A program made the translations under genes and the position numbers. A DNA stretch of 36,567 nt from a virus (taxonomy: Duplodnaviria > Heunggongvirae > Uroviricota > Caudoviricetes): the IMG/VR virus record IMGVR_UViG_2671180349_000007; one strand, given 5' to 3'. Positions 12,356 through 36,567 of the stretch are shown one piece after another. How positions within the stretch are numbered: position 1 is the first letter of the stretch; the number at the start of each line of letters is the position of its first letter. Below the pieces are notes generated by a model. It did not search any database. It was not told the DNA's origin and was given only the letters and a program-made list of their open reading frames with translations.

Positions 12356-12421
12356 ATTGCTCTAATAATTCCATATTTTTAAAACGTGATGTACACTCAT
12401 CACGTTTTTTATTAGAGCAAT
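12356..12421. promoter_or_regulatory. bivalent C1 operator pair enclosing a terminator hairpin
   Basis: ATTGCTCTAATAATT at 12356-12372 and its inverted partner ATTAGAGCAAT at 12405-12421 flank the hairpin aaaacgtgatg-tacact-catcacgtttt. Confidence 0.6.
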
Positions 12422-13990: not shown

Positions 13991-14497
13991 TTGAGTATTT
14001 TCAATAAACACGCACACCAGGAACGTCCGTACATCGTCATAGTAGATATTGATGGGACGATATCAGAGGCAACGGAAGACAGGCTGCATTTACTTCCACC
14101 ACCTGGCAAAGGTGCATTAACAGAGCACTGGAACGAGTTTAACCTTGCCTGTGACACTGATGCTCCCATCACTCCAGTTATTGATATGGTGCGCCAGTTG
14201 TCCGGCATTTACACCCTCTGGTTTGTAACCGGGCGCTGTGAGATAGCCAGGGATAAAACACGAGCCTGGTTGCGTAAGCACGTAACAAATGGGGCTGAGC
14301 CTTTGCTATCTATGCGTCCTGCCACCGATGACAGAAATGACGGTCCAGCAAAGATTGATCTCCTGAAGAAAATTGGTCTAAGTAAAATTGCGTTCGCGCT
14401 GGAAGATAAGATTGAAGTGGCGCGTGTTTTCAGGAGTCACGGCGTACTTACGTTAATGGTCAGGGAGTATGAAAACGCGCTTCTTCATCAACAATAA
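13991..14497 (+). CDS. HAD-superfamily phosphatase-like protein
   Basis: TTG start with GAGGAGGG RBS; motif I VIVDIDGT, then FVTGR and DKTRAW elements. Confidence 0.55.
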   Translation: MSIFNKHAHQERPYIVIVDIDGTISEATEDRLHLLPPPGKGALTEHWNEFNLACDTDAPITPVIDMVRQLSGIYTLWFVTGRCEIARDKTRAWLRKHVTNGAEPLLSMRPATDDRNDGPAKIDLLKKIGLSKIAFALEDKIEVARVFRSHGVLTLMVREYENALLHQQ

Positions 14498-14513
14498 TTG
14501 CTCTAATAAATCT
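14497..14513 (+). promoter_or_regulatory. C1 operator
   Basis: ATTGCTCTAATAAATCT, 16/17 match to consensus, overlapping the HAD stop codon. Confidence 0.65.
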
Positions 14514-14595
14514 TGATTTTTAAAACAGAGAAAGTGAAAATAAAAACATGCCGCAAGGCGCGGCATGTATCCAATCAATCACAGGAGCTGAAAAT

Positions 14596-22722: not shown

Positions 22723-22723
22723 A

Positions 22724-22762
22724 ATTGCTCTAATGTATTGCTATTTCTTTAATAGAGGGTAT
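22724..22762. promoter_or_regulatory. C1 operator pair upstream of lpa
   Basis: ATTGCTCTAATGTATTG plus an inverted partial site TTTAATAGAGGG. Confidence 0.5.
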
Positions 22763-26028: not shown

Positions 26029-26045
26029 ACTTGCTCTAATAAATT
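26029..26045 (+). promoter_or_regulatory. C1 operator at the start of the ImmI-like region
   Basis: CTTGCTCTAATAAATTG, 15/17 match to consensus, 3 nt after the pacB stop. Confidence 0.55.
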
Positions 26046-26178
26046 GTGTTTTTTGACTGCCGATGTTACATTGAACCTGACCTCTTGCGCCTTGAGGCAT
26101 TTTCGGTTTATGCTTATCAGGCACCTCAGTAAAACGGGTGCCGGGATTGGAACCCCGGATAATGTCAAAGGCGACACA

Positions 26179-26200
26179 GACGCCAAAAGCGTCTTTTTTT
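26179..26200 (+). terminator. intrinsic terminator or attenuator
   Basis: GACGC-caaaa-GCGTC followed by seven T residues. Confidence 0.55.
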
Positions 26201-26224: not shown

Positions 26225-26320
26225 CGTAGCGTTTAGCTCAGAGATCAATGGTAGTGCTGGCTGGGCTGCCGAAAGGCAGGCCGGTTCCCTTTGACGCCGG
26301 TAGTTCCAACCCAGTCAGTG
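26225..26320 (+). ncRNA. c4-like antisense regulatory RNA (boundaries approximate)
   Basis: Multi-stem structure (ctggg...cccag enclosing a GAAA-tetraloop hairpin and a ccgg hairpin) exposing GTTCCAA/GGTTCC, complementary to the two GATTGGAACC loops at 26145-26154 and 26334-26343; position upstream of icd-ant as in P1 ImmI. Confidence 0.3.
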
Positions 26321-26385
26321 CTACCGCCATTGAGATTGGAACCTCACGCGGTAGCTCCTTAACTTAGTCAAAGGAGGCTGCCATT

Positions 26386-26607
26386 ATGGCTACTATCCCT
26401 ACCCCAACTCATCCTGAATTTATCTGGCGCTTTTACTCCTGCCAGAAACGTCACTATCACTTCGTTATTGCACCGACAGAAGATGAGGCTCGCTCTCAGC
26501 TTCCTGATGCACCCTGTATTTTCTCCGCCCGTTTTTCTACTGATTCGCGCAATTCTCTCAGTTACTGGTGCCTCCCTGTTAACACTTCTGCTCAGGAGGG
26601 ACTATGA
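26386..26607 (+). CDS. icd: Icd-like protein (73 aa)
   Basis: AAGGAGG RBS; 73-aa ORF overlapping the ant start (ATGA), the P1 ImmI arrangement. Confidence 0.55.
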   Translation: MATIPTPTHPEFIWRFYSCQKRHYHFVIAPTEDEARSQLPDAPCIFSARFSTDSRNSLSYWCLPVNTSAQEGL

Positions 26608-27659
26608 GAACGTCATTAGTCACCCGTGAAGAGATGATCGAGGCAATTGAACAGCACACTGCCTGTATCAGTACCAGGGATATACCGGGCGTTATTGCCA
26701 ACTACTTCATGATCACCAAACAACTTTACCGGAGAAAGGACAAGAACGCTGTTCACCGCATTCTGTTGTCTGATATCCGCGAATACCTGCTCGAACAGGG
26801 GCATCTGAATTACGCAACCGTCGCAGCCGAAACACGCAAGGAGGCACACAGAATGAAAGCAAGCAAACCAGATGTTGTCGTTACAAAGCCTTTGACAGCA
26901 ACCACACCAGCACCGGTCATGGATGCTATCCCCAACACCGGAGACACAATCGACAGCCAGACGCTGTTAAAGATGGTTAATGAGGCGCGTAAGTTATGTG
27001 GGGAACCATTAGTAAGAAATAATAAGTTTATTGAGAAGGTTGTGGATGAGCTTGAAGGTGAGACCTACACAAAAAGTGTAGGTCGCAAAAATGGTGCAAA
27101 CATAGACATTATCACCATGACTTTCAAACAAGCCCTGCGAGTCGCCGCGCGCGAGTCAAAAGCGGTCCGCCGTTCGCTGATCGACAAGCTGGAGGAGTTG
27201 CAGCAGGTTAGCGCTGCTTCTCCAGCGATCCCCCAAACATTGCCCGAAGCTCTGCGCCTGGCTGCCGAACTGGCTGAACAAAAGCAACTTCTGGAACAGA
27301 AAGCCCACCAGCTAAATCAGCAGCTGGTGGCCGCAGCCCCCAAAGTCGATTTTGCCGACCGGGTATCAGTGGCTAAGGGGATCCTGATTGGAAATTTTGC
27401 AAAGGTTGTTGGACTTAAGCAAAACGCGCTGTTTGCCTGGTTACGGGAGAACGGCATCCTGATTGCGTCCGGCGGACGTAAAAATGTGCCATTCCAGCAG
27501 TACATCAACGCCGGGTATTTCACTGTGAAAGAAGTGGTGCTAGATGATGAAGATGGCTACCAGATACGGCTGACGCCTCAATTAACGGGGAAAGGCCAGC
27601 AGTGGTTGACGCGTAAGCTGCTCGATGCTGGCTTGTTAAAACCGGTGGCGGCTGAATAA
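26604..27659 (+). CDS. ant: antirepressor Ant, KilAC-type C-terminal domain
   Basis: 351-aa ORF coupled to icd; C-terminal ILIGNFAKVVGLKQNALFAWLRENGIL region typical of phage antirepressors. Confidence 0.7.
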   Translation: MRTSLVTREEMIEAIEQHTACISTRDIPGVIANYFMITKQLYRRKDKNAVHRILLSDIREYLLEQGHLNYATVAAETRKEAHRMKASKPDVVVTKPLTATTPAPVMDAIPNTGDTIDSQTLLKMVNEARKLCGEPLVRNNKFIEKVVDELEGETYTKSVGRKNGANIDIITMTFKQALRVAARESKAVRRSLIDKLEELQQVSAASPAIPQTLPEALRLAAELAEQKQLLEQKAHQLNQQLVAAAPKVDFADRVSVAKGILIGNFAKVVGLKQNALFAWLRENGILIASGGRKNVPFQQYINAGYFTVKEVVLDDEDGYQIRLTPQLTGKGQQWLTRKLLDAGLLKPVAAE

Positions 27660-29118: not shown

Positions 29119-29184
29119 TGTCAAACAACTATGAAAAACAATCCAGTTTTTAGCTGGTGGAGTGGGATTTTTCTCTCAAAATTT

Positions 29185-29201
29185 ATTGCTCTAATGATTC
29201 T
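29185..29201 (+). promoter_or_regulatory. C1 operator upstream of coi (Op99 cluster)
   Basis: ATTGCTCTAATGATTCT. Confidence 0.6.
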
Positions 29202-29244
29202 TGATTTTTGTGCGCAGCTGGACGTAAACTCCTATTCGGACCTG

Positions 29245-31149: not shown

Positions 31150-31166
31150 ATTGCTCTAATCATTTG
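31150..31166 (+). promoter_or_regulatory. C1 operator downstream of cre
   Basis: ATTGCTCTAATCATTTG. Confidence 0.55.
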
Positions 31167-31182
31167 ATATTTATGGTGACAC

Positions 31183-31735: not shown

Positions 31736-32689
31736 TCATTCAGCCGCCACCGGTTTTAACAAGCCAGCATCGAGCAGTTTACGCGTCAACCACTGTTGGC
31801 CTTTCCCCGTTAATTGAGGCGTCAGCCGTATCTGATAGCCATCTTCATCATCCAGCACCACTTCTTTCACTGTGAAATATCCGGCGTTTATGTACTGCTG
31901 AAACGGTACATTTTTACGTCCGCCGGACGCAATCAGGATGCCGTTCTCCCGTAACCAGGCAAACAACGCGTTTTGCTTAAGCCCAACAACCTTTGCAAAA
32001 TTTCCAATCAGGATCCCCTTGGCCCCTGATACCCGGTCGGCAAAATCGACTTTAGGGGCGGCGGCCACCAGCTGCTGATTTAGCTGGTGGGCTTTCTGTT
32101 CCAGAAGTTGCTTTTGTTCAGCCAGCTCGGCAGCCAGGCGCAGAGCTTCGGGGAGTGTTTGGGGAATCACTGGAGAAGCAGTGCTAGCCTGCTGCAATTC
32201 CTCCAGTTTGTCGATCAGCGAACGGCGGACCGCTTTTGACTCGCGCGCGGCAACTCTCAGGGCTTGTTTGTAGGTCATGGAGATAGTTTCAGATGTTGTG
32301 TTGTTTAATTTTTGCACTACGAAAATTTCGTAGTACTCACCATCCAGTTCATCCTTAACTCTGGCAATAAAATCATTATTGCGAACTGGTTTTTCGCTAC
32401 ATAATTTCCGCGCTTCATTGACCATCTTTAACAGCGTCTGGCTGTCGATTGTGTCTCCGGTGTTGGGGATAGCATCCATGGCCGTTGCTGGTGTGGTTGC
32501 TGTCAAAGGCTTTGTAACGACAACATCTGGTTTGCTTGCTTTCATTCTGTGTGCCTCCTTGCGTGTTTCGGCTGCGACGGTTGCGTAATTCAGATGCCCC
32601 TGTTCGAGCAGGTATTCGCGAATATCAGACAGCAGGATACGGTGAACCGCGTTCTTGTCCTTTCTCCGGTAAAGTTGTTTGGTGATCAT
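31736..32689 (-). pseudogene. second ant-like antirepressor copy, mosaic, 5'-truncated by transposon insertion
   Basis: 317-aa ORF matching residues 35-351 of the 26604 ant gene except for a divergent central block; its first codon abuts the transposon IR at 32693. Confidence 0.65.
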
Positions 32690-32692
32690 GAA

Positions 32693-32730
32693 GGGCTCCG
32701 TTTGGGAAACGGAAAATATTGTACGTTAAG
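32693..32730. repeat. transposon left 38-bp terminal inverted repeat
   Basis: Perfect inverted match to 36530-36567; the tnpA stop lies inside it, as is typical for the Tn3 family. Confidence 0.8.
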
Positions 32731-35713
32731 ATTGTTTTTTGTACTGGCTAACATCAACTGCTCGCAAAGGACGATACTTCCCTTTTGCCAGCTTCTTATT
32801 GTTTCTCCATATATAGTCTCCTGTCAGATTTATGTGCTCCCAGCCCAGCGGAGACAAGTGTGACAACAGTTGATCATTGATATGTAGTCCCTTCTTTTTC
32901 AGCAGATTAATGGCGTTTTCTATATATACGGTATTCCACAAAGTGATCGCGGCAGTAAGCAGCGTAAGCCCACTGGCGCGGTAACTCTGGTTTTCAAGAC
33001 CACGATCCCTTATTTCTCCCAAACGATGCATGAAGACAGCTCTGGCAAGGGCATTCCGGGCTTCCCCTTTGTTCAGACCTGCCTGAACCCTACGACGAAG
33101 CGCCGGGTCGCGGAACCAGTCCAGCATGAACAGTGTTCGCTCAATGCGACCGATTTCTCTCAACGCCTTAGCAAGGCCATTCTGTTTCGGATAACTGGCC
33201 AATTTTTTCAGCATCAGAGAAGCGGTCACTGTTCCCTGTTTTATTGAGGTCGCCAGCCTCAGAATTTCATTCCAGTGTATTTTTATCTCTTTGAGATTCA
33301 GGGGGGTTGTGGAAATAATTGACTGTAGAGCAGGATAGTTATCAGCTTTACCTTGAATAAACAAACGTTTGTCATGCAGATCCCGGATCCTTGGAGCAAA
33401 AGCGAATCCCAGCAGATGCATTAGTGCAAAAACATGCTCCGTGAAACCTGCTGTATCGGTGTAATGTTCCGTTATTTCAAGGTCACTTTCGTGATACAGA
33501 AGACCATCAAGTACGTGGGTGGAATCACGAACACGGCTGATTACTTTGGTATAAAACGGACTATATTGATCTGAGATATGCGTATAAAACTGCACTCCCG
33601 GTTCCTGACCGTACTTCAAATTAACCTGACCTGCATATCGTCCGTGGCTGCCAACCCTAAAATTCTGACCGTCAGAAGATGAGGTGGAACCGTCTCCCCA
33701 TAACGCAGCCAGCGGTCGTGACTTTTGAGCATTAACCAGTTCTGCCAGTGCAGCAGCGTACGTTTCATCACGGATGTACCATGCTTGTATGTTTTCCAGC
33801 GAAGCCCGTGTGGTTCCCGGACAGGACTCTGCCATTTTTGCCAGCCCCAGATTGATGCCGTCTGCCAGGATAGTGGTTAGTAGTAAACGGTTATCCTGAG
33901 GACGGATTAGCGGATTCTTAAGATGAGTAAAATGTCGCGAGAAGGCAGTCCATCGCTCGACTTCATCAAGTATCTCTGTGATTTTGGGGTGCGGTAGCAT
34001 GTTGTAAATCAGGTCGGCCAGGGGAGAGACTGTTGAAGGAACGCTGTTATCCAGTGGGGTGATCTTTACACCTTTATCTGAAATATCCACATCAGGAAGA
34101 TCCCCTGCGACAGCCATTGCGTTAACTTCCTCCAGACGGGAGGCCAGTAGAGTCAGTCTGGCATTAAGATAAGCCCCACATTCTGTGCCAACAGGTAAAT
34201 TTAACAGGTTATTATTTAATAACTTTTCGAAATCATCGTTAGGCATAAGATAATCATCAAAGTTTTTGTAGCGCCGGGAGCCCCTGACCCAGATATCACC
34301 CGCCCGCAGCGCCTCCTTTAGCTCATTCATTGCGCAAATTTCATAGTATTGTCGGTCAATGCCTGAGGGAGTGATCACCATCTTTCTCCAGCTCTCAGGA
34401 ATGAAATCCAGTGGTGCCGATGCAGGAACCTTTCGTAGCTGTTTACGGTACATATCACGAATAGTTTCAAGGGCATCATTAAGCGGCAAAGCTGCCGAAG
34501 TGGCTCTCAGTTGCAGGGCCGATAGAAAACGAAAAGAATATTTGCGCAATGTACTGAATTTTTCGGTAATAAGATGAAGCGGCTCAAAATTATCCTTACG
34601 TGCAAGAAGCTTTGTTTCCTCCAGACTGGCGACAAAATCGTCCCACGGTAACACTCGTTCAATAGCAGACAGAGGATCTTCGCCTGAGTTGCGTGCATCC
34701 AGGATAGCCTGGCCAACAGAAACATACTGACGTAACTTTTGCTGTATCAACTTGCCCGTTTTCTGAAGACGCTCGGCCTGCTGATGTTTTGCCCGACTGA
34801 ACATGCTGCCCAGAATACGCTCATGCAGTTCTATAATTTCATCAATGATTGTGGCTCTGACCTCAGTCAGTACACAGACCATCGTTGCGTATCGACGAGC
34901 AGGGGAAAAATCAGCCAGATCGCGACTGCTCATTTTGCGGCCCTCACGCGCGAGTTTCAGCAATCGGTTCTGGTGAACGGTTCTCTCCACTCCTTCCGGC
35001 AGCGCCAGATCTTCAATAGCGTTAAGGCGGTCAATGTGTTGCAGGACATTCTTTCCATTGATTTTCCCCGGAGGTTGAAGCAGCCACGTCAAACGGGATA
35101 TTTGTTTTTCATTTGTCACCAACAGGGCATCAAGCGCAGATTTATGCGTGATATCAAGGTGCGCATTCAGCGTTGTATAAACTGTTTTATCACCCAGTGT
35201 CATTGCTTCAGCACAGGTACGTTCCAGAACATCAATGCCAGGAATAATAATTCGCTGTTGATGCAGGTACTTCAATAACTCCTCTGCGATAAGTATGCCT
35301 CTGTCCGTTCTGGTAGACAGAGGAAGCAGATGCCGGATACATTCTTTCTGAAGCGCACCGTTAAAGGCTTTCAGTTCAAGATATCGATAAAGTTCCTGCA
35401 TATGCTCACGTCTGGTGGTATCACGACCGGAAACGTATTCCTGCCAAAGCTCTGCTGATAATTTAAGTCTGGCACTAATGATTTTTAGCAATTTTGCGGG
35501 TGGGGATGATTTTTTATCCGGAGCAAACCCAATACTTTTCAGATAACAGAGAAGAACGGCAAAACCAAACCGGCTGGCAGGTTTACGGTGAACATTGATA
35601 ATTGCCAGATCCTGTTCACTGAAATACGTCATTCGAGTTAGTGTTAACTCATCGTCTGGTAATGCCAGTAATGATTCTTTTTCCGACTGCGAAAGAATCT
35701 GCCTCCTTGCCAT
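32726..35713 (-). CDS. tnpA: Tn3-family DDE transposase TnpA
   Basis: 995-aa protein with conserved Tn3-family blocks (HYTDTAGFTEHVFALMHLLGF, ILRLATSIKQGTVTASLMLKKL, GLNKGEARNALARAVF). Confidence 0.95.
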   Translation of the reverse strand: MARRQILSQSEKESLLALPDDELTLTRMTYFSEQDLAIINVHRKPASRFGFAVLLCYLKSIGFAPDKKSSPPAKLLKIISARLKLSAELWQEYVSGRDTTRREHMQELYRYLELKAFNGALQKECIRHLLPLSTRTDRGILIAEELLKYLHQQRIIIPGIDVLERTCAEAMTLGDKTVYTTLNAHLDITHKSALDALLVTNEKQISRLTWLLQPPGKINGKNVLQHIDRLNAIEDLALPEGVERTVHQNRLLKLAREGRKMSSRDLADFSPARRYATMVCVLTEVRATIIDEIIELHERILGSMFSRAKHQQAERLQKTGKLIQQKLRQYVSVGQAILDARNSGEDPLSAIERVLPWDDFVASLEETKLLARKDNFEPLHLITEKFSTLRKYSFRFLSALQLRATSAALPLNDALETIRDMYRKQLRKVPASAPLDFIPESWRKMVITPSGIDRQYYEICAMNELKEALRAGDIWVRGSRRYKNFDDYLMPNDDFEKLLNNNLLNLPVGTECGAYLNARLTLLASRLEEVNAMAVAGDLPDVDISDKGVKITPLDNSVPSTVSPLADLIYNMLPHPKITEILDEVERWTAFSRHFTHLKNPLIRPQDNRLLLTTILADGINLGLAKMAESCPGTTRASLENIQAWYIRDETYAAALAELVNAQKSRPLAALWGDGSTSSSDGQNFRVGSHGRYAGQVNLKYGQEPGVQFYTHISDQYSPFYTKVISRVRDSTHVLDGLLYHESDLEITEHYTDTAGFTEHVFALMHLLGFAFAPRIRDLHDKRLFIQGKADNYPALQSIISTTPLNLKEIKIHWNEILRLATSIKQGTVTASLMLKKLASYPKQNGLAKALREIGRIERTLFMLDWFRDPALRRRVQAGLNKGEARNALARAVFMHRLGEIRDRGLENQSYRASGLTLLTAAITLWNTVYIENAINLLKKKGLHINDQLLSHLSPLGWEHINLTGDYIWRNNKKLAKGKYRPLRAVDVSQYKKQS

Positions 35714-35763
35714 ATAGCCTTCCTTGTAAATTATTTAGTGCGTTATTTTTGATGAAAAAGTTA

Positions 35764-35870
35764 TTGCATAAGGGTATACCCTTATGCAATAGACAAAACG
35801 TGACGGCACTCCAATAATGACATAACCTATATGCGATAGAATAAATGCAATAATCTAAACGCGATAGCGT
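35764..35870. promoter_or_regulatory. putative res site
   Basis: Perfect 26-bp palindrome TTGCATAAGGG-TATA-CCCTTATGCAA plus downstream GCGATAG repeats between divergent tnpA and tnpR. Confidence 0.5.
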
Positions 35871-35879
35871 GGTGGAAAA

Positions 35880-36521
35880 ATGTTTATCAGAGCTTATTTA
35901 AGGGCATCGACGGAAGATCAGTTCGCCGATCGGGCAAAAGAGATGCTGGAGCAGTTCGTTCAGGAGCGGGGGCATAAAATCGCCAGCTACTACCGGGAGA
36001 ACATCAGCGGCACAAAACTAGACCGCCCGGAACTGGGACGCTTACTGATAGACAGTCATCGCAATGATATCTTGCTGGTCGAGCAGATAGACCGCCTGAC
36101 CCGTCTCAGCAACAGTGACTGGATAACGCTGAAAAAGCAGATAGAACAACACGAGTTGCGGATTGTCAGTCTTGATGTGCCCACATCATGGCAGGCTCTG
36201 TCAGATAAAGATCCTTCGCAAGCGGACCCGATCACCCGCACAGTAATAACCGCAATAAATAATATGCTTATCGACCTGATGGCTGCAATGTCGCATAAAG
36301 ACTGGCTGAGTCGTCGTCAACGACAAAAACAGGGAATTGAACGTGCCCATACTTTAGGTAAGTATCGGGGCAAACAGGCAGATCGGGAACGACATCAGAA
36401 AGTAATGTACTACCGGCAGATCAAGAAACTGAGCATCCGTGAAACGGCGGAGGTGACAGGCTATAGTACTTCCCAAGTTTGTCGCATTCAGGCGCTCTAT
36501 AAAGAGGTTAAGCCTGATTAA
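35880..36521 (+). CDS. tnpR: serine recombinase/resolvase TnpR
   Basis: N-terminal RAYLRASTEDQ catalytic-serine motif, LLVEQIDRLTRL, and a C-terminal HTH. Confidence 0.85.
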   Translation: MFIRAYLRASTEDQFADRAKEMLEQFVQERGHKIASYYRENISGTKLDRPELGRLLIDSHRNDILLVEQIDRLTRLSNSDWITLKKQIEQHELRIVSLDVPTSWQALSDKDPSQADPITRTVITAINNMLIDLMAAMSHKDWLSRRQRQKQGIERAHTLGKYRGKQADRERHQKVMYYRQIKKLSIRETAEVTGYSTSQVCRIQALYKEVKPD

Positions 36522-36529
36522 AAAATAGC

Positions 36530-36567
36530 CTTAACGTACAATATTTTCCGTTTCCCAAACGGAGCCC
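36530..36567. repeat. transposon right 38-bp terminal inverted repeat
   Basis: Reverse complement of 32693-32730. Confidence 0.8.

Follow-up and report, generated by a model that had tools for sequence, protein, structure and literature searches.

A cargo-free Tn3-family transposon in the second antirepressor module of a P1-like phage-plasmid of Escherichia coli

The antirepressor gene ant is expressed from a promoter controlled by C1 and C4, and icd is coupled to ant. The transposons Tn3 and gamma-delta carry tnpA and tnpR in divergent orientation, and the space separating the two genes holds res and the promoters. The inverted repeats (IRs) of the Tn3 family usually start with GGGG. A further element, Tn5403, is said to have been described by Rinkel et al. 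in 1994 as cryptic. Tn5403 is 3,663 bp long (PMC11685100) and has divergent tnpR and tnpA genes, no passengers, 38-bp IRs and 5-bp target-site duplications (TSDs) (PMC4611040, PMC5142620, PMC11685100). P1-like elements accept insertions of mobile elements, as in P7::Tn2 and in RCS47, pSvP1 and pTZ20_1P (Venturini et al. 2019, PMC6906374). They often bear extra ant or icd-ant modules, in the pacB-c1 interval and after cre/c8 (PMC6906374).

We analysed a stretch of DNA of 36,567 bp (the window), which is the entire WGS contig CYBW01000035.1 of draft assembly GCA_001283845.1. Window positions 32693-36567 form a complete Tn3-family transposon of 3,875 bp with no cargo genes between its IRs (Table 1). 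It interrupts a P1-like phage-plasmid of E. coli in the second of its icd-ant modules. We consider it very likely that TnpA inserted this cargo-free element by ordinary transposition into ant2, the second antirepressor gene, at codon 35/36, with duplication of ATGAA. Compared with other insertions in P1- and P7-like elements, the transposon found here has no resistance or virulence cargo and disrupts an accessory ant module.

Table 1. Features of the window that bear on the transposon insertion in ant2
Feature	Position	Strand	Remarks
First immunity module, intact	26244..27659	+	Internal reference for pre-insertion ant2
C4 RNA of first module	26244-26331	+	Rfam C4, 77 bits
icd of first module	26386-26607	+	
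ant1	26604-27659	+	
ant2 3' body, codons 35-352	31736..32692	-	Pfam ANT/KilAC, E 1e-31
Target site ATGAA, left TSD copy	32688..32692		Single TTCAT (ant strand) in uninterrupted pB19429_2
IR-L	32693..32730	+	38 bp; perfect complement of 36530-36567
tnpA	32726..35713	-	DDE transposase, Tn3 family, 995 aa
Divergent-promoter / res-like region	35714..35879		Five ATYGCRT motif copies
Perfect 30-bp palindrome TATTGCATAAGGGTATACCCTTATGCAATA	35762..35791		Centre TA at 35776/35777
Three half-site direct repeats CTATCGCAT, TTATTGCAT, CTATCGCGT	35829..35865	-	14-bp spacing, beside tnpR start
tnpR	35880..36521	+	Small serine recombinase (resolvase), 213 aa; Pfam Resolvase E 1.6e-20, HTH_23
IR-R	36530..36567	-	38 bp; final base is the contig's final base

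A preliminary description of this DNA had read the element as a minimal Tn3-family transposon in the second copy of ant, carrying only tnpA and tnpR with an intergenic res-like palindrome and 38-bp IRs. Sequence and domain searches bear out all of these parts and their positions. The IR sequence is GGGCTCCGTTTGGGAAACGGAAAATATTGTACGTTAAG; outside the 38 bp over which the two copies are perfectly complementary, weaker complementarity reaches 57 nt at 88%. As in Tn3-family IRs of about 38 bp with a conserved inner ACGYTAAG, the repeats end in ACGTTAAG. Their outer end is GGGC, not GGGG. IR-L runs into the tnpA stop codon within this inner motif. A literature search with the IR sequence returned no match. 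At the other end, the gap between the tnpR stop and IR-R is only 8 nt, and tnpA and tnpR alone lie between the IRs, with no passenger genes.

The tnpA product covers the whole of Pfam DDE_Tnp_Tn3 (positions 1-389 of 389, E 1e-147) and also contains DUF4158. It scores 1148 bits against NCBIfam transpos_Tn3 (cut-off 500) and matches the cryo-EM chains of Tn4430 TnpA (E 6e-204). TnpR has an N-terminal Resolvase domain, with the catalytic Ser10 in YLRASTEDQ, and a helix-turn-helix at its C-terminal end. Among solved structures it is closest to Sin/Bin3 (2r0q, E 6.5e-6), and matches to the resolvases of gamma-delta and Tn3 follow at about 1e-3. The element is complete in structure: its IRs are perfect, its tnpA is full-length, its tnpR retains the catalytic serine and its intergenic region is conserved.

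The divergently transcribed tnpA and tnpR are separated by 166 bp. This interval holds five ATYGCRT motifs, with 0.13 expected by chance, and is approximately 90-91% conserved over six relatives, one of which, a Yersinia element, has a TnpA of only about 76% identity. Promoter-like hexamers flank the palindrome (35790-35818 on the plus strand, 35758-35730 on the minus strand). By analogy with the res sites of serine resolvases, the palindrome is a candidate crossover site (site I). The three direct repeats are invariant or nearly so among the aligned relatives and are candidate accessory resolvase-binding sites. A putative cointegrate-resolution module would consist of the serine recombinase with its Ser10 motif and the conserved region of palindrome and repeats. 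If the element follows established Tn3-family biology, transposition would be replicative (copy-in) and would pass through a cointegrate, which TnpR would resolve at res in the tnpA-tnpR intergenic region. Crossover would then occur at the palindrome with the three repeats as accessory sites, and TnpR bound at res would also repress both divergent promoters.

The left junction was placed by two comparisons. Within the window, identity between the two ant copies stops at 32693 (26705-27068 versus 32330-32693). The more decisive comparison is with plasmid pB19429_2, in which ant2-icd2 is uninterrupted: its sequence and that of the window agree at every position as far as 32692/32693, and past the junction the plasmid runs on into ant codons 34 to 1. 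The plasmid thus confirms what had been proposed from self-comparison, that IR-L starts where the identity of the ant copies ends. Exactly codons 1-34 are missing from the window, while F35 and M36 are kept. The longest ORF in the ant2 remnant starts at M36 (ATG 32689-32687) and encodes 317 aa. The remnant also retains an internal Shine-Dalgarno sequence AAGGAGG (32560-32554) followed by an ATG (32545-32543), which we take to resemble the start of P1 Ant2. Taken together, the window, pB19429_2 and the right-flank contig described below contain a P1-type immI arrangement, with a C4 RNA, an icd overlapping the ant start and a KilAC antirepressor.

The window ends on the last base of IR-R, as had been noted, because it is a whole WGS contig. 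To find the right junction, we predicted which fusion ORF a simple insertion that duplicates 5 bp would create, and looked for it among public protein calls. The predicted MRTSLVTREEMIEAIEQHTACISTRDIPGVIANYFMGSVWETENIVR was found verbatim (P0001; 47 aa, 100% identity, 100% query coverage) on three contigs. The nucleotides of the junction were read on one of the three, CYGA01000050.1 (L019) in sister assembly GCA_001284285.1, where GCCAACTACTTCAT passes directly into GGGCTCCGTTTGGG and the contig ends 113 nt inside the transposon. The junction itself reads AACTACTTCAT followed by GGGCTCC and is preceded by ant codons 1-35, icd and a C4 RNA. The flank holds icd2, the C4 RNA (70 bits) and a1b1 targets, and over approximately 700 nt it differs from the uninterrupted plasmid at a single position.

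Both features foreseen beyond IR-R are thus present in the sister assembly: a repeat of 32688-32692, as ATGAA (TTCAT on the ant strand), and the N-terminal part of ant, accompanied by an icd and a C4 RNA of its own. A right junction with the ATGAA repeat, ant codons 1-35, icd and C4 RNA therefore indicates a simple insertion, with the 5-bp duplication of the Tn3 family at the ant2 locus. The preliminary description had held that the promoter and first 34 codons were removed. Codons 1-34 are indeed absent from the window, but they are intact across the transposon on another contig, and ant2 is split by the transposon, not deleted. On the far side, the operator, C4 RNA, icd and ant codons 1-35 of the module are all intact. 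Since the body of ant2 is cut off from the C1/C4-controlled promoter and from icd, the split gene has very probably lost its activity. The insertion leaves the first c4-icd-ant module unaltered.

The truncated Ant occurs on exactly three contigs and the fusion peptide likewise on three, with the same accession prefixes in both sets (one CTV, two CTZ). From these three-for-three counts and accessions we infer that the right junction is also present in the window's own assembly. In two of the three pairs, however, the GenBank accession numbers of the two junction proteins differ by approximately 10-12 thousand, so that their pairing by assembly is deduced rather than direct.

Alternatively, the ant2-transposon junction could be one end of a recombinant, formed by homologous or res-mediated exchange between two copies or left by an unresolved P1-like/IncF cointegrate. 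Consistent with this, the 100% identical transposon has at least two contexts in sister strains, with the copy on CYEU01000061.1 entering pemIK, and the window cannot itself show the right flank. Copies elsewhere differ in their flanks. Duplications of 5 bp border L008 (AGGTA; an identical copy) and L015 (TTATA; a 96.9% relative), while none is found at L005 (GTGAA/TTGTA), L016 (AATAT/TGATA) or L007 (AACAT/AATAT). The history of the element thus includes recombination between its copies, and L005 and L016 fit such an origin. However, a recombinant should show non-P1 DNA after IR-R and no TSD, whereas the exact right junction of a simple insertion is found on three contigs, matching the three with the left junction. 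Had only recombination been at work, the two reciprocal junctions would not both be found with an identical 5-bp repeat. We consider a recombinant origin quite unlikely and prefer TnpA-mediated insertion into ant2.

That the window ends at the IR results from assembly at a multi-copy repeat and has no biological meaning. Since the genome carries the transposon in more than one copy, the contig breaks off at the last IR base; an assembler would extend through an identical repeat only until the flanks of the copies diverge. Multiple 100% identical copies exist within one genome lineage, which is an indirect sign of replicative transposition. Sister assemblies contain a 100% identical copy in a different context, with contigs breaking at the transposon edges, and copies of 99.95-100% identity occupy other contexts in sister as well as unrelated E. 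coli assemblies. Sister contig CYEU01000061.1 begins at base 1 of IR-L and exits through IR-R, CYEU01000067.1 ends 64 nt into IR-L, and in other assemblies the transposon is a stand-alone contig of 3,797-3,875 bp. A true DNA end, or a deletion beyond the transposon through a one-ended event or an adjacent deletion, would also place the terminus on the exact last IR base, but it is highly improbable: sister and unrelated contigs start or end at the same IR boundaries or at a fixed 64 or 113 nt inside, a break pattern typical of graph assemblers at repeats, and the far flank exists on CYGA01000050.1. A circular contig was also rejected; window position 1 is not continuous with the interrupted ant.

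None of 50,697 phage records contained the transposon, no complete E. coli genome contained the ant-transposon junction, and none of the full-length PLSDB transposon matches listed lay in a P1-like ant gene. A search of IMG/VR found only the 64-nt transposon stub of the sister contig. The element itself has close relatives on plasmids. Nucleotide identity is 99.5% in E. albertii pESA134_2, 96.9% in E. coli RCS57TR364_p, and 88% in both K. pneumoniae pKP2611-N and Arsenophonus paPb2, and the TnpA of an element on Y. pseudotuberculosis p1 is 75.7% identical in amino acids. Where checked (RCS57TR364_p and pKP2611-N), the IRs were identical or had one difference. In contrast to the present element, these two relatives have passenger genes in the interval from tnpR to IR-R. 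RCS57TR364_p encodes a radical-SAM protein there, and the 5,234-bp element of pKP2611-N a TauE/SafE exporter and a LysR regulator. No P1-like ant gene is the site of any of these relatives. The 88% Klebsiella matches were considered as Tn5403 and rejected; they are this 5.2-kb passenger-carrying relative.

The truncated ant2 lies on the same strand as tnpA, 36 nt away, and no terminator-like site was found in this 36-nt interval. Together with the retained start sites, this means that read-through from the transposase promoter might give a shortened antirepressor. Judging from the sequence, it is possible though unlikely that such read-through yields an N-terminally shortened Ant that escapes C1 and C4. 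TnpR-regulated transcription of the transposon would in that case influence prophage induction or superinfection immunity.

Beyond annotation, the significance of this textbook insertion is small. The sequence records a Tn3-family element that was active recently and carries no cargo. Near-identical copies of it occur in several E. coli drafts and one of 99.5% identity on E. albertii plasmids, and its relatives have acquired passenger genes. Carriage on a P1-like phage-plasmid gives the transposon, in principle, a transduction route. For the analysis of draft genomes, a contig that ends at the last IR base signals a multi-copy repeat, and a missing junction can be recovered from public protein calls through the predicted fusion ORF.

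Compared with described elements, the transposon is an ordinary, recently active and apparently unnamed member of the Tn3 family. Its transposase is labelled only 'Tn3 family transposase' in RefSeq, and the nearest named transposases there, those of TnAs3/ISPa38, are approximately 56% identical in end-to-end alignment, well below the level of the same element. Tn5403 had been suggested as a reference, and it shares the minimal layout of a cargo-free 'helper' element on enterobacterial plasmids, down to the absence of passenger genes. The divergent tnpA and tnpR with an intervening region are also seen in the copy used for comparison (NZ_CP021700.1, with a transposase annotated as Tn5403 family in RefSeq). 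In sequence, however, the two are distant, with 34% amino acid identity in TnpA and 27% in TnpR. The proteins of the Tn5403 copy measure 965 and 201 aa, the present element is 212 bp longer than Tn5403, and its transposase has no Tn5403 label. It is therefore very doubtful that we are dealing with Tn5403 or anything closely derived from it, and at the level of sequence identity this reading was rejected. With the Tn3 family in general it has in common a transposase close to 1,000 aa in length that contains DUF4158 and DDE_Tn3 domains, 38-bp IRs, 5-bp AT-rich TSDs and a small serine resolvase. It differs in its longer, divergent TnpR, in IRs that begin with GGGC, and in candidate accessory sites that are 14-bp-spaced direct repeats rather than inverted pairs.

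The window is part of a P1-like phage-plasmid and carries pacB, a C4 RNA, icd, ant1 (the antirepressor gene of the first c4-icd-ant module), c1, coi and cre, followed by a second antirepressor copy, ant2, on the minus strand. Additional ant modules have been described at both of these positions in P1-like plasmids (PMC6906374). In plasmid pB19429_2 the same arrangement is uninterrupted. This plasmid is 100% identical to the window as far as 32692/32693; past that point it has ant codons 34 down to 1, then icd and the sequence upstream of it, so ant2 codons 1-34 are missing from the window. F35 and M36 are kept, leaving an ORF of 317 aa, and the first immunity module is intact.

We sought the right junction through a predicted fusion ORF in which ant codons 1-35, followed by AT|G from the terminal inverted repeat (IR), run into the right IR (IR-R) to a stop. 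If the element simply inserted and duplicated 5 bp, this ORF should read MRTSLVTREEMIEAIEQHTACISTRDIPGVIANYFMGSVWETENIVR. This 47-aa protein was present in public protein calls on three contigs, with 100% identity and 100% coverage. On the sister contig CYGA01000050.1 (GCA_001284285.1), which ends 113 nt inside the transposon, the junction reads ...GCCAACTACTTCAT|GGGCTCCGTTTGGG.... TTCAT (ATGAA on the plus strand of the window, 32688-32692) flanks the element on both sides and is found once in the uninterrupted plasmid, which identifies it as a 5-bp target-site duplication. Upstream of the junction, this contig contains ant2's own icd, a C4 RNA (Rfam, 70 bits) and a1b1 targets, and its flank differs from pB19429_2 at one position over ~700 nt. 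Thus, the 5-bp repeat and the ant N-terminus with its own icd and c4 lie beyond the right IR, where the preliminary description had proposed to look for them. It had also held that the insertion removed the promoter and 5' end of ant2; codons 1-34 are indeed absent from the window, but the gene was split, not deleted. The truncated Ant occurs on exactly three contigs and the fusion peptide on exactly three, in accession sets with the same prefixes. From these matching counts and prefixes we infer that the window's own assembly also has the right junction, the junction itself having been read in the sister assembly.

Coordinates of features in the window
Feature	Position	Strand	Details
tRNA gene	1137-1209		Rfam tRNA, 64.7 bits
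ATTGCTCTAATAAAT-like copies	12355-12389, 14496-14530, 22723-22757, 26029-26063, 29184-29218, 31150-31179		two repeat families
isrK-like sRNA	26121-26199		Rfam
C4 antisense RNA	26244-26331		first immunity module
Strong internal SD AAGGAGG + ATG of ant2	32543-32560	-	SD 8 nt upstream of in-frame ATG, codon 84 of full-length ant
Left IR (IR-L)	32693-32730		38 bp
tnpA	32726-35713	-	995 aa; Tn3 DDE domain full length (E 1e-147), DUF4158
tnpA-tnpR intergenic region	35714-35879		divergent, 166 bp
Perfect palindrome	35762-35791		30 bp, within intergenic region
tnpR	35880-36521	+	213 aa; serine-recombinase catalytic domain, C-terminal HTH
IR-R	36530-36567		38 bp

In the first module the isrK-like sRNA directly precedes C4; in the second module on the sister contig (L019 9529-9735), C4 and a1b1 targets were found and the Rfam isrK match was absent. 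The dispersed ATTGCTCTAATAAAT-like copies resemble P1 C1-repressor operator sites. One of them lies a short way ahead of the isrK/C4/icd/ant1 block; on the contig with the right flank of ant2, a similar copy precedes C4. The tRNA gene is close to the left contig end; tRNA genes are known from P1-type phages.

The window, which does stop at the last IR base, is the entire draft contig CYBW01000035.1 of GCA_001283845.1 (36,567 bp). In the sister assembly GCA_001284625.1, a contig with the same ant junction stops 64 nt into the transposon, while a second contig starts exactly at the first IR-L base, carries a 100% identical transposon and passes from IR-R into pemIK/IS91 DNA. GCA_001284285.1 has a one-mismatch copy in a third context (L007), and stand-alone contigs of 3,797-3,875 bp in several unrelated assemblies consist of the element alone. 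These contigs show the transposon to be an assembly repeat present in several copies, and the window end is an assembly artefact: extension passes through identical copies and must stop where their flanks diverge, which is at the last base of the IR.

Copies at other loci differ in their flanks. On a ColE1-like plasmid contig, an identical copy has AGGTA on either side, and a 96.9% identical relative in RCS57TR364_p has TTATA on either side. Near-identical copies in contig L005 (2814-6688; GTGAA/TTGTA) and E. albertii pESA134_2 (L016 3001-6875; AATAT/TGATA) have no duplication, and the 5-bp flanks of the near-identical L007 copy (2814-6688; AACAT/AATAT) do not match. These unmatched flanks imply that the sites subsequently recombined or that DNA next to them was rearranged, so recombination between copies is also part of the element's history. 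They likewise leave a small probability that the junction in the window's strain arose by recombination between transposon copies. For the insertion in ant2, both junctions, the duplication and the intact element are demonstrated. The L005 copy has a dispersin gene on one side and a class 1 integron on the other.

The element (32693-36567), delimited by perfectly complementary 38-mers (GGGCTCCGTTTGGGAAACGGAAAATATTGTACGTTAAG), is as first described: a Tn3-family transposon in the second ant, with only tnpA and tnpR between its IRs and a res-like palindrome. TnpA scored 1148 bits against NCBIfam transpos_Tn3 (cut-off 500) and matched Tn4430 transposase structures (E 6e-204). TnpR has Ser10 within YLRASTEDQ, and its closest solved structures are Sin/Bin3, followed by the gamma-delta and Tn3 resolvases. 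IR-L contains the tnpA stop codon, and the gap between the end of tnpR and IR-R is only 8 nt, leaving no space for cargo. The palindrome half-site motif forms three direct repeats with 14-bp spacing adjoining the tnpR start; ATYGCRT occurs five times in the intergenic region, against 0.13 expected from its frequency in the window itself. Promoter-like hexamer pairs lie on either side of the palindrome, on both strands, and the region is 91% conserved over six relatives, including a Yersinia element with a TnpA only 76% identical. It looks like a res site overlapping divergent promoters, with the palindrome as the candidate crossover site. In Y. pseudotuberculosis p1, where the element adjoins yopO, ~90% nucleotide identity of the res/promoter region versus only ~76% amino acid identity of the transposases suggests that the resolution module is either strongly constrained or exchanged between elements.

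Judging from other family members, the element would have moved by replicative transposition, with TnpR resolving the cointegrate at the intergenic res and repressing the promoters. With the insertion in place, the operator, promoter, C4 RNA and icd of ant2 are no longer joined to the body of the gene, and ant2 is therefore most likely inactive. Since tnpA reads in the direction of the truncated ant2, no terminator-like site lies between the two genes, and the internal SD/ATG, which resembles the P1 internal Ant2 start, survives in the truncated gene, read-through yielding a shortened antirepressor is conceivable but unsupported.

Tn5403, the reference proposed initially, is a cryptic element that has IRs of 38 bp and generates 5-bp duplications (PMC4611040, PMC5142620, PMC11685100). 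The present element shares this layout, but Tn5403 is 3,663 bp long and, in a copy with a RefSeq "Tn5403 family" transposase, only 34% (TnpA) and 27% (TnpR) identical. The preliminary description was thus largely right, with three corrections: ant2 is split, the contig end is artefactual and in sequence the element does not resemble Tn5403. The nearest RefSeq-named transposases are those of TnAs3 and ISPa38 (~56%), with an unnamed group at ~76%; this comparison covered names in RefSeq annotation, and the element may already bear a name in TnCentral or ISfinder. Two relatives have passengers between tnpR and IR-R: the one in RCS57TR364_p carries a radical-SAM gene (L015 7830-10100), and the one in K. 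pneumoniae pKP2611-N carries tauE/safE (TauE/SafE sulfite exporter) and lysR (LysR regulator; L017 5331-6696). Close relatives of the element are carried by enterobacterial plasmids, and the event in ant2 is an ordinary insertion of an already known kind of element.
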